A stretch of 64,000 bases of DNA, from contig CAVSHB010000002.1 of NCBI GenBank assembly GCA_963727775.1, positions 827,377 to 891,376 on the forward strand, read 5' to 3'. Below are positions 5,295 to 28,918 of this stretch, one piece after another. Position 1 is the first letter of the stretch; each line of letters starts with the position of its first letter. The DNA is from an uncultured Nitrospiraceae bacterium (GTDB taxonomy: Bacteria > Nitrospirota > Thermodesulfovibrionia > Thermodesulfovibrionales > SM23-35). The translations under genes were made by a program, and so were the position numbers. A model generated the notes under the pieces. The model had not been told where the DNA came from and made no database searches. It saw nothing but the letters and a program-made list of their open reading frames with translations.

Positions 5295-5864
5295 AGCATA
5301 GAGTCGAGAAAAAGAATTATTCATGCCGCTATGAATGTCTTCTCCAGGCACGGATACGCAAAGGCGAATATCCGGGAGATTGCGAAGAGGGCGGGAATAA
5401 GCGTGGGCGGTGTCTATCTGCACTTTAAGAACAAAGAGGACCTTTATCGGAGCCTTATCAACGAGGGCAGGAGGGATATGGGCGAAAGGATCGAGGCGGC
5501 GGTTGAGCAGACCCAATCCGCCACTCAAGCTCTATCGAATTTCTTCAAACTCTATTTTGAGTATGCGGTGAGCCATAAGGAATTTATCCTTCTTCATATC
5601 AGAGAACATGGATTTACCTTCGGTATGGATGAGAAAAGACAGTTTTTCAGCAAACAGAGGAAATTGGTAGAGCGGATCATTCGGAGAGGTATCCGCTCGG
5701 ATGAATTCAGAAAATGCAACTCCGGGGACATGGCAAAGGTCATCATGGGTTCGCTGAGAGGCATTACACTCTCGGTGGCAGTGGATGACGATGTGATTAT
5801 TACCCCTGGGATGATTAATGAATTTATATTGGAAGGCCTGCGGAAAAAGGACAGCAATAAATAA
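5280..5864 (+). CDS. TetR/AcrR family transcriptional regulator
   Basis: N-terminal HTH (IREIAKRAGISVGGVYLHFKNKEDL); upstream of efflux operon. Confidence 0.93.
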   Translation: MNKRSSIESRKRIIHAAMNVFSRHGYAKANIREIAKRAGISVGGVYLHFKNKEDLYRSLINEGRRDMGERIEAAVEQTQSATQALSNFFKLYFEYAVSHKEFILLHIREHGFTFGMDEKRQFFSKQRKLVERIIRRGIRSDEFRKCNSGDMAKVIMGSLRGITLSVAVDDDVIITPGMINEFILEGLRKKDSNK

Positions 5865-5921
5865 TTGCATAATTGACGAATTTGTAAAAAGGCAATATTT
5901 GCCGCAGAGTACACAGAGAAC

Positions 5922-7091
5922 ATGGAGCGCGATGATCAGGAGAGAGTCATGGAAAAAAAGCTGTTAAGGTCTATCAAAACTGAAGCCGTGTTTATTTGTT
6001 CCATCTTAAGTATTTTATTTATAACATTTCTTCCGGCCTGCTCTAAGAAACCTGAGCCTCCTCCAAAGCCGCCCGTGTCAGTGACAGCAGGCGTGGTCGT
6101 TCAGAAGACAGTGCCTGTGCAGATACGCGTAATCGGCAATGTTGAACCCTATTCTACCGTATCGGTGAAATCCCAGATCGGCGGGATACTCATGAGAGTG
6201 CATTTCAAAGAAGGGCAGGACGTAAACAATGGTGCGCTTCTGTTCACTATCGATCCCCGCCCTTATGAAGCTGCGCTCAAACAAGCTGAGGCAAACCTTT
6301 CTAAAGACAGCGCTCAGCTCGAAAATGCACAGGAAGAGGTCCGGCGTTATGCCGAGCTTGTGAAAAAAGGTTATGTTGCTCAGGAGCAATATGATCAGAT
6401 ACAGACGAATGCGGCTTCCTACGAAGCAACGGTAAACGCCGATAAGGCGGTCGTAGATAATTCACGTCTTCAGCTGAAATATTGTTATATTTATTCTCCT
6501 CTGACAGGGAGGACAGGAAATCTCTTCTCAAACGAGGGAAATCTTATTAAGGCCAATGCGGACAATCCAATGGTGGTAGTGAATCAGATCCAACCCATTT
6601 ACGTGACTTTTTCCGTTGCAGAGCAATATCTCTCAGATATTAAGAAATATATGGCGGGTGGAAAAGTGACGGTTAATGCCTTTATTACAAAAGGCGATGA
6701 CAATCCGGAAGAGGGATTGTTGACATTTGTGGACAATACGGTCGACGTTTCAACCGGAACAATCAAGTTGAAAGCCACTTTTGCCAATAAGAAAAAACGG
6801 CTCTGGCCCGGCCAATTCGTTGATGTTGTTATGACATTGACGACGCAGCCCAACGCGATAGTCGTTCCCACGCAGGCGATTCAGGCGGGCCAGAAAGGTC
6901 AGTATGTTTTTGTCATAAAGAAAGATCTCACAGTTGAAGATCGCCCCGTGGTTGTCGGCAGAGTTATCAATGGCGAAACGGTCATCGAAAACGGCCTGCA
7001 AGCGGGAGAAAAGGTCATTACGGACGGTCAGCTCCGTCTTATTCCCGGTGCTAAGGTGCAGATCAAAGACAGGGCCGAGGGCGCAAAGTAA
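5922..7091 (+). CDS. RND efflux periplasmic adaptor (MdtA-like)
   Basis: Lipoprotein-like N-terminus, FKEGQDV..G.LLFTIDP, LWPGQFV motifs; start may be 5949. Confidence 0.9.
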   Translation: MERDDQERVMEKKLLRSIKTEAVFICSILSILFITFLPACSKKPEPPPKPPVSVTAGVVVQKTVPVQIRVIGNVEPYSTVSVKSQIGGILMRVHFKEGQDVNNGALLFTIDPRPYEAALKQAEANLSKDSAQLENAQEEVRRYAELVKKGYVAQEQYDQIQTNAASYEATVNADKAVVDNSRLQLKYCYIYSPLTGRTGNLFSNEGNLIKANADNPMVVVNQIQPIYVTFSVAEQYLSDIKKYMAGGKVTVNAFITKGDDNPEEGLLTFVDNTVDVSTGTIKLKATFANKKKRLWPGQFVDVVMTLTTQPNAIVVPTQAIQAGQKGQYVFVIKKDLTVEDRPVVVGRVINGETVIENGLQAGEKVITDGQLRLIPGAKVQIKDRAEGAK

Positions 7092-10000
7092 TGAACGTCC
7101 CGGAACTTTTCATCCGAAGACCCATAATGACCACGCTGGTCATGGTCTCAATCCTTGTCTTCGGTCTTGCCGCTTACAGACTCCTCCCGGTAAGCGACCT
7201 CCCTAATGTGGATTTTCCCACTATTCAGGTGACAGCCAGCCTGCCCGGGGCCAGTCCGGAGACGATGGCCTCCGCAGTGGCGACCCCTCTGGAGCGGCAG
7301 TTTTCGACCATCGCCGGCCTCGACTCGATGACATCAACAAACGCCCTTGGAAATTCCCAGATTACTTTGCAGTTTAATCTCAGCAGAAACATTGACGCAG
7401 CAGGTCAGGACGTTCAGGCAATGATCGCGAAGGCATCGAAGCAGCTCCCTCAGAACATGCCGGTGCCTCCGACCTACAATAAGGTAAATCCGGCCGATCA
7501 GCCTGTCATTTACCTCGCTCTCGGCTCTCCTACGCTTCCGATTTATAGCGTATACGAATATGCCGATACCTTCATTGCCCAGCGTATCTCCATGATAAGC
7601 GGCGTTGCCCAGGTGCAGGTCTTCGGTTCGCAGAAATACGCAGTCCGCGCACAACTCGATCCCAGGGCATTGGCAGCCAAGAAGATAGGTATTGACGACG
7701 TTGGAAACGCGCTCGCGTTGGGAAATGTGAATCTTCCGACAGGGACCCTGCAGGGCCAAAAACAGTCGTTCACAATTCAGGCTTCAGGGCAGCTTTACAA
7801 TGCCGAATCCTATCGGCCCTTAATTGTCGCATACCGTGGCGGATCACCGGTCCGTCTCGACGAAATAGGCACGGTCATCGATAACGTGGAAAACAATATG
7901 GTGGCCAACTGGTACAATAATGAACGGGCGGTCGTTCTTGCAATACAACGCCAGCCGGGCACTAACACCGTTGAAGTAGTGGATAGCATTAAGAAACTCC
8001 TTCCGGTCTTCAGGGCCCAGATACCGCCCGCAGTCAAACTGGAAGTCCTCTATGACCGGTCCGTATCTATTCGCGAGTCGGTCCGCGATGTTAAATTCAC
8101 TCTTTTACTCGCTCTGTCCCTGGTAGTGCTGGTCATTTTTCTTTTCCTTCGTAATCTCTCCGCAACGCTTATTCCGAGTCTCGCGCTGCCTTTTTCCATT
8201 ATCGGCACCTTCGCCGCCATATACGTTATGGGCTTCAGCGTTGACAACATCTCCCTAATGGCCCTGACGCTATCGGTGGGCTTTGTAGTAGACGATGCCA
8301 TAGTCATGCTCGAAAATATCATGCGACATGTAGAAAAAGGCGAAAGCGTCTTCGAGGCTGCCCTTGCCGGCTCAAGAGAAATCGGATTTACCATATTATC
8401 AATGACCCTTTCCCTCGTTGCTGTCTTCATTCCCGTGCTCTTCATGGGCGGCATTCTCGGACGCATTCTCCACGAGTTTGCGGTGACAATCAGCATGGCG
8501 ATCCTGATATCCGGATTTGTGTCTCTGACGCTCACTCCCATGCTCTGTAGCCGTTTCATACGGCCTGCGGGCACGGCAAGGCACGGTCGCCTTTATCTCA
8601 TGATGGAGAAATTCTTCGACGGCATGCTGCACACATATGAAAGGACTCTTAAGTTTGTACTTCACTATCGCCGGACTACTCTCGCAATTACAATCCTGCT
8701 CACTATAGCAACGGGCTATTTGTTCACAAAGATACCCATGGGATTTCTGCCGTCCGAAGACACCGGCCAGATATTTGCGTTTACCGAGGCGGCCCAGGGT
8801 ATTTCCTTCGACGATATGGTGAAGCACCAGAAAGAACTGGCCGCCATAGTTTCCAAGGACCCTAATATCGATGCCTTTATGTCAGCCGTCGGCGCAAGCG
8901 GGCTGAGCGTTGCGAACAATGTCGGAAGAATGTTCATGCGCCTTAAACCCCGAAACGAACGGAAGCTGAGCGCTGACGAGATCATACAGGAACTCAGACC
9001 AAAGGTCTCGCAGGTGCCGGGCATTATGATGTTCATGCAGAATCTTCCCTCTATCCGGATCGGCGGCACGCTGACAAAGAGCCAGTACCAGTTCACTTTG
9101 CAGAGCCCGGATACAGGAGAACTCTATCGGTCGGCCATTGAGCTGGAGAGCAAGCTGAAGGCGCTGCCTGAACTTCAGGATGTGACCAGCGACCTCCAGA
9201 TTCAGAATCCACAGGTAAATATCGACATTAACCGCGATAAGGCATCGGCCCTCGGCATAACCGCGTCGCAGATTGAAGATGCTCTTTACTATGCCTACGG
9301 CTCCCGTCAGGTCTCGACGATCTATGCGCCGAACAACCAGTATCAGGTAATCCTCGAACTGGAGCCCAGGTACCAGACGGACCCTTCGGCCCTCTCAATG
9401 TTGTATATACACTCGAACACCGGCCAACTCGTGCCCTTGAACACTTTAGCGACCCTCACGCGAAATGTCGGTCCATTAACCGTCAACCACCTCGGCCAGC
9501 TCCCCGCGGTTACCATCTCCTTTAACCTGAAGCCGCGTATCGCACTGGGAGACGCCGTGAAGATGGTAGATAAACTTTCGCATGCAACTTTGCCGCAGAC
9601 TGTCAGCACGAGCTTCCAGGGGACCGCCCAGGCGTTTCAGTCTTCGATGAAAGGTCTCTGGATTCTGCTGATAATGGCACTCCTTGTCATTTACATCGTA
9701 TTGGGAATTCTCTATGAGAGCTTTATCCATCCTCTGACGATTCTTTCAGGACTGCCCGCCGCCGGGTTCGGGGCTTTGGTAACCCTCATGATCTTCCACA
9801 AGGATCTCAATATTTATGCCTTTGTCGGGGTCATCATGCTTCTGGGGATAGTCAAAAAGAACGCCATCATGATGATCGACTTTGCACTGGAAGCCCAACG
9901 GAAACAAGGGAAAGCCCCGATGGATGCGATTTATGAGGGCGCTATGGTACGTTTCCGTCCGATCATGATGACCACTATGGCGGCGCTTATGGGGACGTTG

Positions 10001-15931: not shown

Positions 15932-16299
15932 TAACTAAGACAATTATTTATTAGTAATAGCCTACGTCCAGTCGTCAGTCTGTTATTCCGGGCCCGTCTG
16001 CTCACCTCAATGACCGGGCCGCACGCAGGCGGAGCTGCCCCCAAACAATGCTCAAATGGCCCGCTACTGTCTATGAGTATTTCGATATACTCAAACTTTT
16101 ATCCTTAATGAGTTACTATCAATTTCTCACATCTGACAGGAAAGAGTATTACGAGAACAGGGTTAAGTTCTATTGATACCTAAAGACTGTATACGGATTG
16201 TTTTAGAACTTTCATCTTCTCCTTTAAATTTCTCTTTATTTTTTAGATTGTTATTCCCATAATCTCAGTATTGATTGACTATAGTGAATAAGTTTACTC

Positions 16300-16499
16300 T
16301 TGCTCAATCTATCTTCGACAGGCTGGTTGAGATTAATAGACTGGGCACAAGCGTAGTACTTGTCGAGCAGAACACGCGTATGGCCCTTGAAATTGCTCAC
16401 AGGGGTTATGTTTCTAAGATCGGTGGAATTTTCACGGAAGACACGGGCCAAAACCTTCTTGAAAACGTCAAAATTAAAAAGGTATTTTTAGGTAGTTGA
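16300..16499 (+). pseudogene. 3' remnant of a LivF-type branched-chain amino acid ABC ATPase
   Basis: IFDRLVEINRLGTSVVLVEQNTRMALEIAHRGYV...KKVFLG matches the LivF C-terminus; no Walker A region. Confidence 0.75.
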
Positions 16500-16506
16500 G
16501 CGGTAT

Positions 16507-17940
16507 ATGAAGAAGGATAGAGAACACAGAATGAAAAAGATAAAACTTTTCATGGCATCTCCAAGTGATACCTCTGAAGAAAGAAAAGCATTTGCAGCAG
16601 TAATTAATTCGATAAACCGTAGCAGAGCAGAGAAAGAAGGTTATCACCTGGATCCAGTTTTGTGGGAAGAATATGCATATCCAGAAGCCGAAAATCCCCA
16701 AGCAATCATCAATAAGCTTCTTGATGACGCTGAACTGGTGATAGTTATATTCTGGAACAAGTTTGGTGCTCCGACTAAGAAGTTTCCCTCCGGTACAATG
16801 GAAGAACTCTTTCTGGTATTAAATAAGAGAAAGACGACTGGTTCTCCCTCAATAAAAATATATTTCAGAACCCCTCTTCCTCCAAAGAGTACACATGACG
16901 TTGAAGAGCTAAGAAGAATATTTGAGATCAAGGAATCGATAAAAGAGGTAGCTTTTTATAAGAAATACAATACAGTTGAAGAGTTTAAGAGTTTACTTTA
17001 CGAACACATCAATGCATGGCTTTCCGATTATGGAGGGAATCACTCAAAAAAGAAACAAAATGGTAAGAAAAAGATGATCAAACCGGCGTTGAGGGAGCCC
17101 TCTAATTGCAAAGAAGTAATAAAAGGTGTTTTCGTCAAAGTAGAAAAGAAATTTGACGGAGAAAAGTCCAGCATTAACTTTGGGTTTGAAGACTTAGATG
17201 ACTTAATTGGAGAGATTGAAGATATAAACCTTTTAGTTGTTGGTGGTGACATAGCGTCCGGTAAAACATCCTTAATGCTTGCTTTGGCTTACAATACCGC
17301 AGTTATAAATCGCGTTCCAACTTTGTATTTCACTACCCGTTCTAACAAGGAAGACATCGGTCGCATCCTATTATGTAGCATATCTCAAATGAATATAGAT
17401 CATTTTAAGAAAGGCTTTGTGAAAAGGGATGATTGGCATAGGTTGACGCAATATGCCAGTAAACTTATTGACGCGCCACTTTTTTTTGATGATAATCCTG
17501 AAATGTCAGTTGACGAAATAAGGGAGCAAGTAGTTGGTCTGAAAAGAAAGAACCAGATGGGACTCATTATTATTGACGAGGTGAACTATCTCATATCTGA
17601 AAAGACAAAAACAGGTAAAAAGCTTAGACTTTTATCAAGAGACCTTCAAATACCAATAGTTGCCACGGCTTATTTAGAAATTCCTAAACGCTGTCCCCGC
17701 TCACCAGTCTTAAGTGACATGGACGGGATAGGGGATTTAAAAAAAGAAGCTGATACGATCTTATTCTCTGATAGACCGCAGCATGTTTTCTCCGGCCTCA
17801 GCAGAGACACCGTAGAGATCATAATTGCAAAGAACAAGAATGGGCCATCAGGTTTGGTATTAAGAAAGTATTATCTACCGGAATATTGCAGTTTTGGTGG
17901 CGACGTTCGAGATGATGATAGGGATCGGGAATCATTCTAA
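16507..17940 (+). CDS. DUF4062/TIR-like N-terminal domain fused to a degenerate DnaB-like helicase C-terminal domain
   Basis: N-terminal LFMASPSD..EER, WE, PQ..IN, SGTMEE. The C-terminal half aligns by eye to DnaB (GFEDLDDL, GGDIASGKT, KGFVKRDDWHRL, APLFFDD, IIAKNKNGP). Start may be the second Met. Confidence 0.8.
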   Translation: MKKDREHRMKKIKLFMASPSDTSEERKAFAAVINSINRSRAEKEGYHLDPVLWEEYAYPEAENPQAIINKLLDDAELVIVIFWNKFGAPTKKFPSGTMEELFLVLNKRKTTGSPSIKIYFRTPLPPKSTHDVEELRRIFEIKESIKEVAFYKKYNTVEEFKSLLYEHINAWLSDYGGNHSKKKQNGKKKMIKPALREPSNCKEVIKGVFVKVEKKFDGEKSSINFGFEDLDDLIGEIEDINLLVVGGDIASGKTSLMLALAYNTAVINRVPTLYFTTRSNKEDIGRILLCSISQMNIDHFKKGFVKRDDWHRLTQYASKLIDAPLFFDDNPEMSVDEIREQVVGLKRKNQMGLIIIDEVNYLISEKTKTGKKLRLLSRDLQIPIVATAYLEIPKRCPRSPVLSDMDGIGDLKKEADTILFSDRPQHVFSGLSRDTVEIIIAKNKNGPSGLVLRKYYLPEYCSFGGDVRDDDRDRESF

Positions 17941-17943
17941 CAG

Positions 17944-18177
17944 ATGATTGAACGCGATTTTGATATCCCTTTTATTGCCAATCTCTCTCTGAGAGAAAAG
18001 CAAATCCAGCAGAATTATCGCCCCGTTATTGCTGTTCATAAATGGTTTGCGAGGCGTCCGGGAACGCTCTTCCGTGGATTGATCTTATCGGAGTTTGCCT
18101 CAAAGCCTCTGCGGGAATCTTTTTATGTCGGTAACGAGTTCCCCGGATTGCGCGTGGCGGATCCGTTCATGGGCGGA
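17944..18177 (+). pseudogene. 5' fragment of a DUF1156-type adenine-specific DNA methyltransferase
   Basis: MIERDFD...REKQIQQNYRPVIAVHKWFARRPG...VADPFMGG; breaks off at the SAM-binding motif. Confidence 0.75.
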
Positions 18178-18354
18178 GTCGGAAGCATAATATGCGCAGC
18201 GCTGGGCAACTTCCTCATCGCCTTTGCCCATAACTTCGGGGTCCGGAAGATATCTTCCCAGTAGCAGGACGCTATCGTCTTTCTCGTCCTTCTTGTCTTC
18301 CGCCTTTAGGCCCTACGGCTCTTTCGGAAAGAGATCAGAAAGGCGGAGGTGTAA
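18172..18354 (+). pseudogene. 3' remnant of a LivH-type ABC permease
   Basis: GGVGSI..AALG.FLIAFAHNFG...SSQ*QDAIVFLVLLV..RPYG..GK..RKAEV, with an internal stop and frameshifts. Confidence 0.6.
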
Positions 18355-18431
18355 CGGATGACTTTCGGGGGCCGACGTTATATAATGAGAGCAGAAAGTA
18401 AGCATTATTAGATTGACAGGGGGTGAGATGC

Positions 18432-18626
18432 ATGAAACTGAGAGTAGTGGTTGAGCCGGATGAGGATGTATATGTAGCGTATTGCCCTGAATTACCTGGG
18501 TGTGTGACATACGGCAAGACAGAAGAAGAAGCCCGAAAGAATATAATGGAAGCGCTGGAACTCTATTTAAGACCCTCAAAAGAAGAGTTGGCAAAAGATG
18601 CGAAAGTTTATGAGGTTGCAGTTTAG
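18432..18626 (+). CDS. hicB: HicB-family antitoxin
   Basis: YVAYCPELPGCVTYGKTEEEA..NI.EALELY. Confidence 0.9.
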   Translation: MKLRVVVEPDEDVYVAYCPELPGCVTYGKTEEEARKNIMEALELYLRPSKEELAKDAKVYEVAV

Positions 18627-18645
18627 TGGGGGAAAGACAGCCTAG

Positions 18646-20348
18646 GAGTCTGTCGGACTTGAATTGCTGTTTTTGACAGCGGTTGGAATCCGAGAGAGTC
18701 GATTGTAGTTATTTTTCATGATTTGATCGTCTGTCATCGGTTCTTTCCTGCCGGTGTTTTGTTGGATACATTATGCCATCGCCATTTTCAGGCGCCTACC
18801 TGGCTGTTCCTCAATGCATGCAGCCTTTTGATGTTCCATGCAATGCAGATCATATCCCACTCGCCATTGACTGCAGTAAAACCACGCAACAGGAATCGGT
18901 CAAATCCCATAGCTGCCTTGATTACCCCAAACGCCGGCTCCACAGTACTCTTGCGTATCGCATAAATTGCCTTACCGGCAACTGTCTTCAACCGATGTTT
19001 CATTCTTGTCACTGCATCAGCATCAACCGGCAATGGAGGCGGTTCGACGAATCGCTCCCATAAAGGCTGATTATGACTCTGCCGATCTACTGCTATATAT
19101 GGCTCTATTCCTTTGCTCTCACATTCTTGCACATTTGCTTCGCTGTAATACCCGCTGTCGGCTATTATAGTTTTTACTTTGCCAAGTTGTTCGGGCAGAT
19201 ATGTAAGCGCTTCAAGCGCTGGTTTCATCTGCTGTTTGTCATTGGATTGTTGTGTTACATGCGTTGCGACAATAAGCATTGTTTCTGTATCCACGGCTGC
19301 TTGAGCATTATAAGCCTGCTTGAATCCTCCACCCGATGCCGGCATTATGCGAGATTCTTCATCGGTCAGATTGACCTGATCTTTGTCAGTTGGCCCGGCT
19401 GCAGGCGGCTTGGGTCCTTTGCCTCGGGGTTTCTTGCCGCTCTGCTTTTGTTTGGCTACACGCTCTGCCTGTTTCTTTTCACTGTCGGCTTGTTCCATTG
19501 CATGCCGCTCTGCCGCACGGCGCTCTATCTCAGCTTTTGCTTCAGCTATCATTTTCAGCCGCTTCTCTCGCCGCTCCAGCTCTTCCGGGATGTTCATGCC
19601 GTCAGGAATGTCAGCTTTGTCAGCAGCCTCAGCTTTCTTCATCAGTTCCGCCACTTCCACTTTCAACTTATTCTCTATTTTGCATGCATGCCCGTAGCTC
19701 AACGCCTTGTGCTTTGAGGCATTGGCTTTCATTTTGGTCCCATCCAAGCTGACCGTGCCTAACTTCAATACCCCGGTTTCTGCTGCTATCATTAGTATCT
19801 GCACAAACAGTTCTTTCAGCTTAGGCAAAAACCGACGTCGAAAGGTTGCTATTGTGTCATGGTCAGGGTGACTGTTGGCTGCCACATACCGGAATGCTAC
19901 AGAGTCGTACGTGCTACGCTCTAATTGCCTGCTCGAAAAGACTCCCGTCGCATATCCGTAAAATAATAATGCCACCAGCATCTCAGGGCTGTATGCCTCA
20001 CTGCCTCGTCCTGCATAATCATTTTTCAACCGGTCAAGATTAAGCTGATCCACTATCTCTACGACAAATCTCGCCAAGTGACCCTCGGGCAACCATTCCT
20101 GCACCGACGGCGGAAATAAATATATCGTCTCTCTGTCACATTGTTTGAACATTATGCTGATCTCCTGTTGTTCATTCTTATGCCGCTTGTCTATTATGCC
20201 ATAAGGAACGCCCATGCAGGTCTGTCGGACTTAGATAATTACAGGCCGAAAAGATTTCTGCTGCCCAGTTTGCAATAAAGGTTCTTAAGAGACTGCCGTG
20301 TCCTTCAAGAAGTAAACTTTTCAGAAATGTTGAAAGTCCGACAGACTC
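18646..20348 (-). mobile_element. Complete IS1182-family element
   Basis: Perfect 15-bp TIRs GAGTCTGTCGGACTT / AAGTCCGACAGACTC; CTAG duplicated at 18642-18645 and 20349-20352. Confidence 0.92.
18788..20215 (-). CDS. IS1182-family transposase
   Basis: LPEGHLARF, YGYATGVFSSR, PDHDTIATFR, LDGTKMKANASK, TDEESR, ADSGY, VEPAFG; the true start may be the internal MFKQ. Confidence 0.92.
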   Translation of the reverse strand: MGVPYGIIDKRHKNEQQEISIMFKQCDRETIYLFPPSVQEWLPEGHLARFVVEIVDQLNLDRLKNDYAGRGSEAYSPEMLVALLFYGYATGVFSSRQLERSTYDSVAFRYVAANSHPDHDTIATFRRRFLPKLKELFVQILMIAAETGVLKLGTVSLDGTKMKANASKHKALSYGHACKIENKLKVEVAELMKKAEAADKADIPDGMNIPEELERREKRLKMIAEAKAEIERRAAERHAMEQADSEKKQAERVAKQKQSGKKPRGKGPKPPAAGPTDKDQVNLTDEESRIMPASGGGFKQAYNAQAAVDTETMLIVATHVTQQSNDKQQMKPALEALTYLPEQLGKVKTIIADSGYYSEANVQECESKGIEPYIAVDRQSHNQPLWERFVEPPPLPVDADAVTRMKHRLKTVAGKAIYAIRKSTVEPAFGVIKAAMGFDRFLLRGFTAVNGEWDMICIAWNIKRLHALRNSQVGA

Positions 20349-20712
20349 CTAGTGTCACTGCCGATGAGATCATAAGGGTTTTGAAGTCACTTGGATTCGA
20401 AAAAGTAGATCAGTCAGGCAGTCATCAAAAGTGGAAACATCCTTTAACCGGCAAGCAGACGATAGTGGCCTATCATTCGGGAGAAATAATCAGGCCCAAG
20501 ACATTCAAGAAAATTCTTGAAGGCGCTGGATTGACCGTAGATGATTTTATTGCAATCAGAAAGAAACTATGAGATATAGAGTGCTCATCGGGGTTGTGTT
20601 TTGAAATATAAGATTTGCCCGTGAAGACTTTGTACCTTGACTGACAAATTGACAAGGTGTTGAGTTTCTTTTATTATAGCCTTAAATATAAGCATGTTAT
20701 TTAAAAGTACTT

Positions 20713-20994
20713 ATGACGCGAGAATCGATTATAGAATCTATCAAGAATACCCTCAAAAGGTACGGCATCACCAAAGCATACCTCTTTGGCAGCTTTGCCC
20801 GGCTGGACGACGACTACCATGACATAGACGTCGCAATCGAGCCGCCACAGGGCAAATTCTCCCTGTTTGATCTTGTCGGCGTAGAACAGGAGCTTGAGGA
20901 TCTAACAGGCCAGAAGGTCGACGTGGTTATCTATCGCGCTCTTAACCCTCGTATTAGGAGCTATGTTGACCAAGACCTTGTGCCGATATTATGA
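20713..20994 (+). CDS. Minimal nucleotidyltransferase (MNT) antitoxin
   Basis: LFGSFAR....DIDV, ELEDLTGQKVDV. Confidence 0.88.
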   Translation: MTRESIIESIKNTLKRYGITKAYLFGSFARLDDDYHDIDVAIEPPQGKFSLFDLVGVEQELEDLTGQKVDVVIYRALNPRIRSYVDQDLVPIL

Positions 20995-21050
20995 CAGCCG
21001 GAAAAGACGATCTTGTCTATATAGAGGACATGCTGTCGGCGATAGATTAA
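20991..21050 (+). pseudogene. Truncated HEPN/DUF86 toxin 5' stub
   Basis: MTAGKDDLVYIEDMLSAID* overlaps the MNT stop (ATGA) and resembles DUF86 N-termini. Confidence 0.6.
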
Positions 21051-21067
21051 TCATTAAATTCCGACAA

Positions 21068-21122
21068 ATGATCGAACGAGCTTATGACATACCTTTATTG
21101 CCAATCTCGCCTCAGAGAAAAG
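21068..21122 (+). pseudogene. Second degenerate copy of the DUF1156 methylase 5' end
   Basis: ATGATCGAACGAGCTTATGACATACCTTTATTGCCAATCTCGCCTCAGAGAAAAG compared with 17944 ATGATTGAACGCGATTTTGATATCCCTTTTATTGCCAATCTCTCTCTGAGAGAAAAG. Confidence 0.7.
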
Positions 21123-21209
21123 TAAAGAACTTCACACGCCCGTGCAGATTTCTAAAACTGAAGCCACTGAGTTAAAATATATAAAATGTGGACAAAGGGG
21201 GTGAAGTCA

Positions 21210-21421
21210 TGCGTTATAGAATTCTCATAGAGCAAGACGAAGACGGGATGTTTATCGCAGAATGTCCTTCTCTTCCCGGATGTGTTTCTCAGGGTAAAAC
21301 GCGGAAAGAAGCTTTGGAAAATATTCAAGACGCCATGAAAGGGTATGTCGAGAGTTTGAAGAAGCATAACGAGCCTATTCCTCCTCCGATTGAAGAAGAG
21401 ATCGTAGAGGTGGCTGTTTGA
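21210..21421 (+). CDS. hicB: HicB-family antitoxin
   Basis: MRYRILIEQDEDGMFIAECPSLPGCVSQGKTRKEALENIQDA; start approximate. Confidence 0.88.
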
Positions 21422-21507
21422 GTAAATTACCAATTGTTTCGGGCCAAGAGCTTTGCCAAGTTGGCTTAACGACGGAAGAGTTGAAAGATTTAATTGAAAT
21501 CGTATAA
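21418..21507 (+). pseudogene. HicA toxin with an in-frame internal deletion
   Basis: MSKLPIVSGQELCQ joined directly to VGLTTEELKDLI; both HicA termini are present but the GSH core is missing. Confidence 0.7.
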
Positions 21508-21621
21508 CCAACGAAGTTAAGCATTTTTTGTCATTAATTTCTTTTTGATTTGCCTATTTCCTGATTGAAATAATATGATGAATGAATTAGAATACATAAG
21601 AATAAATATGAAAGAAGGTGA

Positions 21622-21870
21622 ATGATTGTGCCAAAAACCATAACACTGCGATTGCGCGATGAAGTGTATGAGAAATTGAATCGCGCCGCTATGGAGGACA
21701 ACAGGAGCATAGCGAATCTGATTGAGACACTCGCCATAGAAAAGCTCGAAGAAGAATCGCTGGCTGATGACTTTGAGATGGAGGAAATAGTTTCCAACGC
21801 CGCCTTGCTGAAAAAGCTCGACAAAGGCCACAGACAGGCTGCACAGAGGAAAGGCAGACTGGTTGGTTAG
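21622..21870 (+). CDS. Ribbon-helix-helix antitoxin
   Basis: KTITLRL.DEVYEKL..AA.EDNRSIAN; overlaps the toxin gene. Confidence 0.8.
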   Translation: MIVPKTITLRLRDEVYEKLNRAAMEDNRSIANLIETLAIEKLEEESLADDFEMEEIVSNAALLKKLDKGHRQAAQRKGRLVG

Positions 21871-22144
21871 ATACAGGATCTTTGAGACTGAGCAGTTTCT
21901 TGAGGACCTATCAGATAGCTTTGGATCGCACGGTGAGCGTATAAGGAAGAAACTTTCAGAATATGTCTATCCTCAATTGAGAAACTCCCCGTATTTTGGT
22001 AAACACATCAAAAAGCTGAAGAATTATAAGCCTGAGACCTGGAGATACAGGGTCGGTAATTACCGTTTTTTTTACGAAATCGATGAAACGGAGCATATCG
22101 TCTATATGATCGTTGCGGAGTCGCGCAAGGACAGTTACAGATAA
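21863..22144 (+). CDS. RelE/ParE-family toxin
   Basis: IKKLK, WRYRVGNYRFFYEID. Confidence 0.88.
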   Translation: MVRYRIFETEQFLEDLSDSFGSHGERIRKKLSEYVYPQLRNSPYFGKHIKKLKNYKPETWRYRVGNYRFFYEIDETEHIVYMIVAESRKDSYR

Positions 22145-22361
22145 CGGTCTGATCATTTCGTCAAATCAGCCTTTCCAGTACAATATCCAGGGACACCCCC
22201 ATATTAAATGACATTAAGACTGTTATTCTGAAAGCCCCTCAGGAATATTCTCCTGCCCGAAGAGCTTCCGAAAATTCTTTCCGTTGAAACAACCACCCTT
22301 TCTTGACAGCTGCATTGCAATGCATTACAATGAATTATCTTGTAATAGGAGGGTAAATAGC

Positions 22362-22619
22362 ATGAACTCTCAACTAACAGTCAGATTGCCTGATAACCTT
22401 GAAAAAGGTATCTCGATGATCGCCAAAAAGCTTCATTTAAAGCGGGCTGATATCGTCAGAATGGCATTAGAGAGATTTGTTAAACAAGCTGAGGGGGGAG
22501 ACGAGAGTAGCCCGTATGATAGGGTAAAGAGCCTTCTTGGAAGTGTTTCGAGCGGCATCTCCGACCTCGGGGAGTCACACCGGGAGCACCTCTTGAGGAA
22601 AATGAAGCGGCATGCGTAG
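22362..22619 (+). CDS. CopG/RHH antitoxin (VapB-like)
   Basis: MNSQLTVRLP...RADIVRMAL; AGGAGG upstream. Confidence 0.8.
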   Translation: MNSQLTVRLPDNLEKGISMIAKKLHLKRADIVRMALERFVKQAEGGDESSPYDRVKSLLGSVSSGISDLGESHREHLLRKMKRHA

Positions 22620-23025
22620 CTTGCTGTTTGATACCGGCGCATTTGTCGCGTTGCTTGATAAAAGCGAAAAGAATCACGAGCGTTGCGTTGCCTTTTTAAA
22701 AGAGTTTAAAGGTAAGCTTTTCACCACGGAACCGGTACTCACAGAGACCCTTTATCTGCTCGGACCATCAATAAAAGCTCAGCGGGTTTGCATTGACTTT
22801 ATATTGAAAGGCGGAGCAACTTTGATCCCCCAAGCAAAGGAAAGTTTATCTCGCGCATCTGCACTCATGGAAAAGTATGAGGACATCCCGATGGATTTTG
22901 CAGATGCTACCCTCGTGTCCCTCGCTGAAGAGATAGATGGAGTCGAGATACTCACTCTTGATCGGAGAGGTTTTAGTGCTTACCGTATTCGCGGGAAGAC
23001 AGCATTTAAAATCTGGCCGGAGTAG
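22612..23025 (+). CDS. vapC: PIN-domain VapC toxin
   Basis: FDTG, VLTE, MDFADA, TLDRR.F acidic PIN residues. Confidence 0.9.
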   Translation: MRSLLFDTGAFVALLDKSEKNHERCVAFLKEFKGKLFTTEPVLTETLYLLGPSIKAQRVCIDFILKGGATLIPQAKESLSRASALMEKYEDIPMDFADATLVSLAEEIDGVEILTLDRRGFSAYRIRGKTAFKIWPE

Positions 23026-23038
23026 GTGGCACTGATTT

Positions 23039-27544: not shown

Positions 27545-28918
27545 ATGAAAAGCGCAGAAGTACAGCTCGATAAGCTGCCGCCCCAGAACCTGGAGGCAGA
27601 GCAATCCATTCTCGGTGCGGTCCTCATAGATAACGATGCGCTGCCGAAAGCATTGGAGATCCTCGACCCCGAAGATTTCTATAAGCTGTCCCACAGAAAA
27701 ATATTCAATGCAATGTCGGACCTTTTCGAGAAAAATGAAGCGATAGACCTAATAACACTGACGGACTGCCTGAAAAAGAAGGACGATCTGGAAACCGTCG
27801 GCGGTGTATCTTATCTCTCATCTCTGGTCAATATGACCCCGACTGCTGCAAATATAAAATATCATTCGCACATCGTAAGGGAAAGGGCTTTGCTGAGGGG
27901 GCTTTTAAGGTCTGCGAATGAGATTGCAGGCAAGGTCTATGAAGAAAGTCTTGACGCAGAGGATCTCGTTGATTTTGCGGAGAGATCAATCTTCGATATA
28001 TCCGACAAAAGAATTAAAGCTTCATTTGTGACCTTAAAAGAGGTCATTAAAGACAGCTTTGAGATGATAGAACGTCTCTATGACAAAAAGGAATCTGTAA
28101 CAGGAGTGCCTTCAGGTTTCAAGGACCTTGATGACCTTACGACAGGGTTCCAAAAAGGTGATCTGGTCGTAATAGGCGGAAGGCCTTCGATGGGGAAAAC
28201 GGCGTTCTCGCTTAATGTCGCCCAGTATGTCGGGCTTGAAATGAAAGAGCCGGTTGCGATATTCAGCCTTGAAATGTCAAAGGAACAGCTTGCTTTAAGA
28301 ATGTTGTGTTCCGAAGCGAAGGTAAATTCGAACAGCATCAGAAAAGGGTTTATAAAAAAAGAGGACTGGCATAAACTGACGAGCGCGGCAAGCAACCTTA
28401 CAAGCGCGCCGATTTTTATCGATGATTCATCCGCTATTACAGTCCTTGAACTGAGGGCAAAGGCAAGACGGCTAAAAATGGAACATGGCCTCAGCCTTAT
28501 TATTGTGGACTACCTGCAGTTGATGAAAGGTAAGGGAAGTTTTGAAAGGCGTGAACAGGAGATATCCGATATATCCCGCTCTCTTAAAGCGCTGGCAAAA
28601 GAGCTGAGCGTGCCTGTTATTGCCGTCAGCCAGCTCAACAGGAGCGTTGAGTCGCGCAAACCTCCGAAGCCCATGTTGGCGGACCTGAGGGAATCAGGGG
28701 CTATTGAGCAGGATGCGGATGTTATCCTTTTTCTTTACAGGGATGAAGTTTATAATAAGGACAATCCTGCCAATAAGGGAAAAGCGGAAGTTGACATTGC
28801 CAAGCAAAGAAACGGTCCTGCCGGAGTAACAGTCCATTTGGCGTATATCTCGAGCTGCACAAGGTTTATGAACATGGCGGACAGGGAGTATGGGGATATG
28901 GAGGAGGAAGCGTTTTGA
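27545..28918 (+). CDS. dnaB: Replicative DNA helicase
   Basis: PPQNLEAEQ, GRPSMGKT, FSLEM, DYLQL, SQLNR, DLRESGAIEQDAD, KQRNGP. Confidence 0.97.
   Translation: MKSAEVQLDKLPPQNLEAEQSILGAVLIDNDALPKALEILDPEDFYKLSHRKIFNAMSDLFEKNEAIDLITLTDCLKKKDDLETVGGVSYLSSLVNMTPTAANIKYHSHIVRERALLRGLLRSANEIAGKVYEESLDAEDLVDFAERSIFDISDKRIKASFVTLKEVIKDSFEMIERLYDKKESVTGVPSGFKDLDDLTTGFQKGDLVVIGGRPSMGKTAFSLNVAQYVGLEMKEPVAIFSLEMSKEQLALRMLCSEAKVNSNSIRKGFIKKEDWHKLTSAASNLTSAPIFIDDSSAITVLELRAKARRLKMEHGLSLIIVDYLQLMKGKGSFERREQEISDISRSLKALAKELSVPVIAVSQLNRSVESRKPPKPMLADLRESGAIEQDADVILFLYRDEVYNKDNPANKGKAEVDIAKQRNGPAGVTVHLAYISSCTRFMNMADREYGDMEEEAF

Follow-up and report, generated by a model that had tools for sequence, protein, structure and literature searches.

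We describe a gene that joins a predicted NADase domain of the DUF4062/NIR kind to a catalytically dead copy of the replicative helicase DnaB. It was found in a stretch of 64,000 nucleotides (hereafter the window) from an uncultured Nitrospiraceae bacterium, positions 827,377 to 891,376 of contig CAVSHB010000002.1, assembly GCA_963727775.1. We propose that it encodes a one-gene abortive anti-phage NADase in which the dead DnaB would serve as bait for phage proteins that bind DnaB, and assign this reading a probability of roughly 0.5. That the protein is an anti-phage NADase with a DnaB-derived sensor, whatever its trigger, appears probable from the same sequences. The architecture, the family-wide loss of motor motifs, the retention of the linker helix (LH) and docking helix (DH) of DnaB, the selection and the mobility are all observed in the sequences. 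An original prediction, made from the letters of the window, had suggested such a helicase decoy; its observation was confirmed and its interpretation is partly supported.

Gene architecture

The intact 477-aa open reading frame (ORF) is open throughout 16507-17940 (+) (Table 1), and a second in-frame ATG at 16531 corresponds to the start position in most relatives. The C-terminal part is DnaB_C according to Pfam (residues 223-453, E 8e-40), NCBIfam and fold search alike. When the query and 19 aligned family members were compared with Pfam, the DnaB N-terminal domain (PF00772) gave no match in any of them, and divDNAB (PF20307) gave none either, at E<=0.1 for the query and at E<=0.01 for the members. 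In a whole-genome search the host DnaB was the sole other match of the query, with 32% identity over 278 alignment columns. All motif pairs originally quoted for these two proteins were reproduced in this alignment.

A whole-protein AlphaFold2 (AF2) model built from 19 sequences (mean pLDDT 74) displays a five-strand alpha/beta N-terminal domain, a disordered linker, a helix at residues 201-216 and a RecA fold, and the matches retrieved with it in a fold search are DnaB structures. Base composition of the gene is GC 0.384 and GC3 0.365, and that of host dnaB 0.465 and 0.519. A promoter scan was uninformative (9 sites versus 5.3 +/- 2.8 in shuffles).

The N-terminal domain

The N-terminal domain had been taken for DUF4062, and this assignment is supported. 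Pfam DUF4062 (PF13271) matches residues 14-100 (E 8e-5, 23.2 bits, cut-off 24.7); a match at E<=0.01 is present in 15/19 aligned members, and a truncated close relative exceeds the cut-off with 25.9 bits. With PADLOC, residues 10-187 match positions 3-182 of the candidate PDC-S60 model at E 3e-31. A wider profile of the domain aligned with a DUF4062-NACHT protein (77 bits) at 92% probability, Glu100 being matched to the conserved Glu of that protein. This glutamate, the conserved Glu of the S-x-T-x-x-E helix by which DUF4062/NIR is recognised, is kept in 18/18 family rows (defined below), in 7/7 NIR-DnaB fusions outside the family and in 110/111 further NIR proteins. The order of secondary structure elements in the full AF2 model fits the TIR-like five-strand alpha/beta topology, as far as the available text on that topology goes. 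A model of the domain alone was poor (pLDDT 46); a fold search with it yielded nothing at E<=0.001, and TIR domains appear in its weak rows; a search of PDB with the single N-domain sequence returned nothing relevant.

According to three preprints, DUF4062, renamed NIR, is a TIR-like NADase that depends on its Glu and brings about abortive infection once the C-terminal sensor of the respective protein is engaged (10.64898/2026.05.01.722283, 10.64898/2026.09.04.749371, 10.64898/2026.06.25.731849). NADase activity and defence were demonstrated for KpSwz, PsAvs2, Vulcan and Vesta (10.64898/2026.05.01.722283, 10.64898/2026.09.04.749371). The NADase-type effector proposed originally agrees with these reports on other DUF4062 proteins, and the head of the query is predicted to be a NADase of the DUF4062/NIR kind.

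Loss of motor and DNA-contact residues

Residues were mapped through an alignment with Vibrio cholerae DnaB (10.1101/2024.11.09.622779) and counted in 18 family rows. These comprise the query, 15 relatives, P0051 and the full-length L023 protein, which replaces the partial P0020; the truncated P0008 and P0018 were omitted, as were duplicate rows. The site of the catalytic Glu is occupied by a basic residue (Arg, Lys or His) in 18/18 rows and by Glu in none. In V. cholerae DnaB, substitution E259A abolishes ATPase activity (10.1101/2024.11.09.622779). The arginine finger is Arg in 1/18 rows and lost in the other 17, and the finger Lys442 is present in all. Erosion of helicase catalysis, reported at first for the query, is a property of the whole family.

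The contacts with single-stranded DNA (ssDNA) are affected too. Six of the seven V. cholerae DnaB contact positions are deleted or replaced in the query, every family row lacks 9-10 residues of ssDNA loop 1, and the Arg of loop 2 (L2) is kept in 0/18, with Asp in its place in 15/18. Walker A GK[TS] and Walker B Asp occur in 18/18. The 99 canonical DnaB rows used for comparison were partly picked for intact motifs, so that the motifs stand at 99/99 there by construction. Judging from these residues, the DnaB part of the family is not a motor.

Retention of the loader-binding helices

On DnaB, DciA, DnaC and lambda P all bind at one shared site, the LH-DH pair (PMC9912922; 10.1101/2022.12.30.522210), which is also the joint between subunits of the ring (10.1101/2022.12.30.522210). 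Compared with canonical DnaBs, no other non-overlapping 17-residue windows of the family are retained as well as DH and LH (1.15 and 1.04, overall 0.56), ratios that may be inflated by gathering the canonical rows with the family profile and that drift towards 1 in variable windows. Within the family both are among the most conserved windows (DH 0.47, LH 0.46 versus 0.38); among canonical rows the same windows are least conserved (DH 0.30, LH 0.21 versus 0.46). In the TIR-DnaB group (see below), which was not used for that search, DH is again the top window (1.04 versus 0.66) and LH is less clear (rank 46 of 272). Trp310 is found in 18/18 and Glu213 in 17/18 family rows. By alignment they correspond to E. 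coli Trp294 and Glu194, both of which contact lambda P (PMC9912922; 10.1101/2022.12.30.522210).

The likeness of these helices to the DnaB of their carrier was examined in seven genomes, of which five encode an intact NIR fusion and two a TIR fusion, fusion proteins being taken from the matching loci. Compared regions were set from published LH and DH definitions, and the own-host score was set against shuffled pairings. For the five NIR pairs the own-host score was reached by 4/120 permutations in LH+DH and by 14/120 in the rest of the domain, and the top two sliding windows for own-host likeness sit on LH and DH. For all seven pairs it was reached by 4/5040 permutations in DH, 5/5040 in LH and 565/5040 in the rest. 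On host-variable columns, the LH-DH value is reached by 0/2000 equal-size draws from elsewhere. A split between two lineages, plus G225, accounts for much of the signal. The loader-binding surface assumed in the original prediction is thus retained and host-like; its statement that the C-terminal part tracks host DnaB holds for LH and DH and fails for the domain as a whole.

Because the family forms a single clade, has a deletion in common and shows no copying of DH codons, selection that keeps LH-DH host-like would be the simplest reading. Recent gene conversion of DH from host dnaB was considered and found unsupported, with 2-7 identical codons among 10-14 identical residues and 57-67% DNA identity.

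Family, selection and origin

Homologue search yielded 48 proteins, of which 18 are family relatives (37-78% identity, some partial) and 30 are others, nearly all ordinary DnaBs. The two named family relatives belong to Nitrospirota. The family is rare: the N-domain search detected it in 5/401 sampled genomes of the phylum and the whole-profile search in 5/317 genomes of the order (four full-length, one truncated). It occupies varied sites and moves between lineages. No NIR-DnaB family locus was found in viral contigs, and none of the phage records covered 80% of the query.

Values of dN/dS (NG86) lie at 0.07-0.15 in five pairs for the N-terminal domain and at 0.15-0.22 in six pairs for the DnaB part, at dS mostly >1 and with three further pairs saturated in one or both domains. 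On these estimates both domains are under purifying selection, which the original prediction had named as a check, together with association with defence genes. Defence-type neighbours occur at 8/10 distinct loci, a plain count without background and not an enrichment test. The two closest copies are broken, one (G025) by truncation and the other (G023) by an in-frame 648-bp deletion, with dN/dS of 0.62 on its remaining C-terminal part. Rarity, purifying selection and broken close copies would fit a useful but costly gene. The G023 copy (L034:10162-10941) is near-identical to the query gene; its deletion, at whose junction the sequence is alike over a short stretch, has taken out Glu100, LH and Walker A. 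It occupies a different chromosomal site and is followed by a longer DUF1156 methylase gene.

Approximately unbiased (AU) tests (28 rows, LG+G4) did not reject a single origin, whether of the whole set of fusions (p 0.20) or of the NIR fusions as a group (p 0.37). Trees put P0052, P0054 and one TIR fusion among canonical DnaBs, and in the N-domain tree all 25 NIR-DnaB proteins fall inside one 28-row clade. Given this clade and the outcome of the AU tests, independent captures of DnaB are not claimed. Recent duplication of host dnaB is disfavoured (AU p 0.034, with long branches; 32% identity). The closest canonical rows by identity are host-lineage DnaBs (32-33% versus a median of 27%).

TIR-DnaB fusions

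Swapping of effectors on the same DnaB_C, another check proposed at the outset, is evident. A profile search of 1.84 billion representatives retrieved further NIR-DnaB_C and TIR-DnaB_C fusions, and Atlas contains a TIR + DnaB_C cluster with 62 members. With a TIR-DnaB profile, at least 105 TIR + DnaB_C fusion clusters were obtained (105 of the 120 matches listed). Going by source names among the matches listed, they come from what we take to be Desulfobacterota, Nitrospirota, Proteobacteria and Bacillota; the culturable Gammaproteobacteria Marinobacter and Pseudoalteromonas are among the names. Of the 105 listed fusions, 3 have the catalytic Glu, 23 the arginine finger, 61 the Walker A Lys (54 with GK[TS]) and 99 an aromatic DH residue.

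Two TIR-DnaB loci were read. One is clearly part of a defence island, with type I restriction, Ppl-like and Mrr genes and integrases, and the other has only an HNH neighbour. TIR-DnaB was found in 0/317 genomes of the host's order, and in viral contigs the TIR profile gave TIR-part matches only, at 7 loci. Plasmid searches with TIR-DnaB queries returned 1 and 2 records at 80% coverage, by count alone. An Atlas search with the C-terminal domain alone retrieved generic DnaB_C clusters only. In databases, several relatives wrongly bear the label 'replicative DNA helicase'.

Proposed mechanism and alternatives

In the mechanism we propose, dead DnaB domains would self-associate, LH of one subunit lying on DH of the next, and the assembly would probably bind nucleotide and not hydrolyse it. 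A phage loader, inhibitor or similar DnaB-binder would wedge into LH-DH and remodel the assembly; lambda P (10.1101/2022.12.30.522210) and Ped1 (PMC13728149) are phage proteins that bind DnaB. Remodelling would put the NIR domains into an active arrangement, NAD+ would be destroyed and the infected cell would shut down. Tentatively, and with somewhat less than even confidence, we extend this to a widespread undescribed class of immune receptors, integrated decoys of the replicative helicase, in which dead DnaB is carried under NIR or TIR heads in several phyla and LH-DH is selected in step with host DnaB, so that any phage protein that hijacks or blocks the helicase would trip suicide.

Several points weigh against a bait. 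The query itself stays below the DUF4062 cut-off, and the profile match of its N-terminal domain to the solved KpSwz reaches only E 0.15. LH-DH doubles as the joint of ring self-assembly, so that its retention by itself would not imply a bait, and the loops at host 400-420, which are part of lambda P site 3 (10.1101/2022.12.30.522210), are not specially kept in the family (ratio 0.70). Host-likeness rests on five to seven related pairs that are not independent; one pair per family gives 1-2/24 permutations and the order alone 4/24, and the G423 fusion does not track its host DnaB. The invariant GKT, Walker B Asp and basic residue at the catalytic site point to a nucleotide role. The neighbour count lacks a background, and several of the neighbour matches are to candidate (PDC) models. 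The host genome encodes DciA, whose binding to LH-DH of DnaB would raise an autoimmunity problem for a bait. Finally, the steps that involve partner, oligomer and activity are inferred from sequence.

Host-likeness would fit binding to host DnaB or DciA equally well, and sequence cannot separate this from a bait for phage proteins. The dead domain might thus act as a guard: paired through LH-DH with host DnaB or DciA, it would keep the NADase off until a phage seizes, blocks or degrades DnaB or brings a DnaB-like helicase. Resemblance of LH and DH to the carrier's DnaB is what pairing with a host partner would require, DciA is at hand, and phage inhibitors of DnaB exist (Ped1, PMC13728149). 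On the other hand, one would expect replication to be poisoned by a dead subunit in so essential a ring, the protein lacks the primase-binding N-terminal collar and the family moves between lineages; we regard a guard as unlikely. The family-wide GKT, Walker B Asp, finger Lys and basic catalytic site, each in 18/18 rows, would suit a nucleotide sensor, whose RecA pocket binds without hydrolysis and whose oligomer is switched by a change of the nucleotide pool or by a phage-induced nucleotide, LH-DH serving only for self-assembly. Nucleotide-triggered NADase systems exist (Vesta model, 10.64898/2026.09.04.749371; Kongming). However, the listed TIR fusions have kept GK[TS] in about half of cases and the DH aromatic residue in nearly all, and a role in self-assembly alone would not explain why LH-DH resembles the DnaB of each host; such a sensor is quite unlikely.

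The location of the gene among toxin-antitoxin (TA) modules in an insertion hot spot would agree with a conflict gene directed against mobile elements that make use of host DnaB, such as plasmids, or with an addiction-type toxin, rather than with a mainly anti-phage function. Initiators of plasmids and of integrative and conjugative elements do recruit host DnaB. Nevertheless, the characterised bacterial DUF4062 proteins in the available text of the three 2026 preprints are all anti-phage and no constant antitoxin-like partner accompanies the family, so we consider this improbable. The original prediction also allowed for sensing of ssDNA, a dead ring threading phage replication ssDNA and thereby activating the NADase. 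Eva01, a DUF4062 protein, is proposed to sense replication intermediates (10.64898/2026.06.25.731849), and a basic linker precedes LH in the query; the loss of contact positions, loop 1 and L2 Arg described above nonetheless argues strongly against this option, which we hold to be highly improbable. In view of the intact DnaB fold and Walker A and of the database labels, one could invoke a mobile-element helicase that is still active, or a dnaB duplicate in decay. Family-wide loss of catalytic Glu, arginine finger and DNA contacts, the low dN/dS of the DnaB part, the absence of relatives from viral contigs and from phage records at 80% coverage, and the lack of a constant primase or replication neighbour largely refute it.

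The concept of integrated-decoy receptors is established in plants. If the bait reading holds, the protein described here would be their bacterial counterpart. It would sense an activity, the attack on DnaB, and not a phage structure; escape would be open only to a phage that no longer binds the real helicase. A ready-made reporter for unknown phage helicase loaders and inhibitors would be gained as well. Occurrence of the TIR version in culturable Gammaproteobacteria makes a test with lambda P-type loaders practical.

Relation to known systems

Swarozyc (KpSwz) is likewise a single gene with an N-terminal DUF4062 NADase, catalytic Glu and a C-terminal sensor; it is autoinhibited until a phage protein binds, and is patchily distributed in defence islands (10.64898/2026.05.01.722283). 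Its sensor is an HTH (helix-turn-helix)/winged domain that binds phage portal, whereas that of the query is a derivative of the host helicase. PsAvs2, Vulcan and Vesta share NIR/DUF4062 as a swappable NAD+-depleting effector on varied sensors, and in Avs2 NIR is coupled to a P-loop oligomerisation domain (10.64898/2026.09.04.749371). Their sensors are STAND+TPR, HEAT repeats or a small ligand domain, and the P-loop of the query is of RecA/DnaB class, not STAND. Evangelion (Eva01) is similar as a single-gene DUF4062 protein with a variable auxiliary region, tied to phage replication functions (10.64898/2026.06.25.731849). In the available text, this region is not described as DnaB-derived and is proposed to read DNA intermediates, while the query has lost most DNA contacts. 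Auxiliary parts of Swarozyc, Vulcan, Vesta, Evangelion and NIR-Avs (HTH-winged, HEAT, phosphatase partner, Eva AUX, STAND+TPR) are absent from the query. It would work like Swarozyc, Vulcan and Evangelion but belongs to none of them, because their sensors differ.

With DnaB itself (PF03796; loader complexes 6BBM/9OA1, 6QEL, 8A3V) the query shares fold, LH, DH, Walker A and Walker B Asp; unlike DnaB, it has no N-terminal domain, catalytic Glu, arginine finger or ssDNA loops and carries an immune effector. PADLOC PDC-S60 resembles it in the N-terminal domain only, the DnaB part being unmatched by this model of 906 positions. Sir2-HerA, as far as its available description goes, also places a NADase effector under a RecA-like ring protein, but consists of two genes, and its ATPase is of HerA/FtsK class and not a copy of a host replication protein.

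The effector class has been known since 2026; a sensor derived from the host helicase was not found in the literature searched. The available main text of the three DUF4062 preprints mentions neither DnaB nor helicase, and that of 10.64898/2026.09.04.749371 does not mention RecA either. Literature searches, with most subscription papers outside their scope, gave no report of a DnaB-derived sensor, none on DUF4062 with DnaB or on divDNAB, and nothing relevant on a DnaB decoy in phage defence or on a DnaB-like + TIR architecture. The BREX paper has no mention of DnaB.

Genomic neighbourhood

The gene is part of an insert between emrA-like and emrB-like genes (Table 1). Its cargo consists of a livF remnant, the query gene, a methylase remnant, a HicB-like ORF, an insertion sequence (IS), HicA, a nucleotidyltransferase, HicB, and ribbon-helix-helix (RHH)/ParE and RHH/PIN pairs. 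The island had been described as made of TA genes and remnants. Both are present, along with a multi-copy IS that is intact and TA genes that seem to be whole. Copies of the IS represent a recent expansion in this genome. In 13/20 family loci emrA lies 3-196 bp from emrB; the remaining 7/20 have no emrA beside emrB.

Table 1. Coordinates of the fusion gene, its parts and neighbouring features in the window
Feature	Position	Strand	Remarks
Insert between emrA-like and emrB-like genes	15932..23038		~7.1 kb
LivF-type ABC ATPase C-terminal remnant	16275-16499		directly upstream of query gene
Whole gene	16507..17940	+	intact 477-aa ORF; joins DUF4062/NIR domain to linker helix and C-terminal domain of a DnaB that is catalytically dead as judged from its residues
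DUF4062/NIR (TIR-like) domain	16531..17040	+	residues 9-178; five strands alternating with helices in AF2 model
Glu100, predicted catalytic Glu	16804..16806	+	last residue of S-G-T-M-E-E motif
Basic linker	17041..17106	+	residues 179-200; variable, low model confidence
DnaB linker helix (LH)	17107..17154	+	residues 201-216; Glu213 retained
DnaB C-terminal RecA-fold domain	17173..17865	+	residues 223-453
Walker A loop	17245..17268	+	G-K-T retained; Arg-Pro of DnaB gone
Arg278	17338..17340	+	occupies site of DnaB catalytic Glu (host E243, V. cholerae E259)
DnaB docking helix (DH)	17425..17472	+	residues 307-322; Trp310 invariant
Lys444	17836..17838	+	arginine-finger site (host R422); preceding finger Lys442 retained
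DUF1156 adenine methyltransferase remnant	17944..18264	+	106 aa; 735 aa at same place in L034
Insertion sequence, DDE transposase	18642..20352	-	11 more near-identical genome copies: 9 whole, 1 interrupted, 1 cut at contig end
Host replicative helicase DnaB	27545..28918	+	every motif intact

The ten distinct loci are the window, L021, L022, L023, L024, L025, L026, L030, L032 and L034, and the scan of neighbours covered part of the listed neighbouring ORFs (48 against Pfam, 31 against PADLOC). The strongest associations are those of L021 (TIR, three Mrr, DUF4062-NACHT, dCTP deaminase, integrase), of L025 (Schlafen, AbiE pair), of the window and L034, where the DUF1156 methylase is a neighbour and the window has TA genes in addition, and of L030 with a type IIG remnant. 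Weaker neighbours were detected in L022 and L023 (PDC candidates) and in L024 (TOTE primase, ResIII helicase), and no convincing one in L026 and L032. No constant partner gene was found among the scanned family loci.

In G025 (L025:4611-8649) the emrA-emrB gap holds other cargo, namely a Schlafen AlbA_2 protein, a truncated copy of the query gene and an AbiEi/AbiEii pair. This gap looks like a defence hot spot. In L021, four unannotated ORFs in a row, then a dCTP deaminase-like gene (5377-9566), are located just upstream of the family gene in the defence island; the four gave no Pfam or PADLOC match. A TIR domain fused to a LacI-type periplasmic-binding-protein domain is encoded in the same island (L021:12932-14248).

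Other relatives

Stand-alone degenerate DnaB_C proteins of about 300 aa were also retrieved (P0072, P0095, P0139, P0175, P0179, P0186, P0190 and others). Some of them may be fragments, and P0080 and P0188 fall among TIR fusions in the tree. P0055 is a tandem DnaB_C protein, and P0066 and P0124 have hydrophobic N-termini. In P0324 and 10 related proteins, one of them named from Methanoperedens, a NIR domain of the same subfamily is fused to an S-layer domain (PF07752), possibly another host-derived sensor. In P0350, a single sequence, the partner of a NIR domain from this subfamily is the C-terminal helix-turn-helix of DnaA (PF08299, E 7e-28). In this one protein the NIR effector would bear a second kind of replication-protein domain, and the fusion with DnaA domain IV suggests that the same trick is used with other replication proteins.

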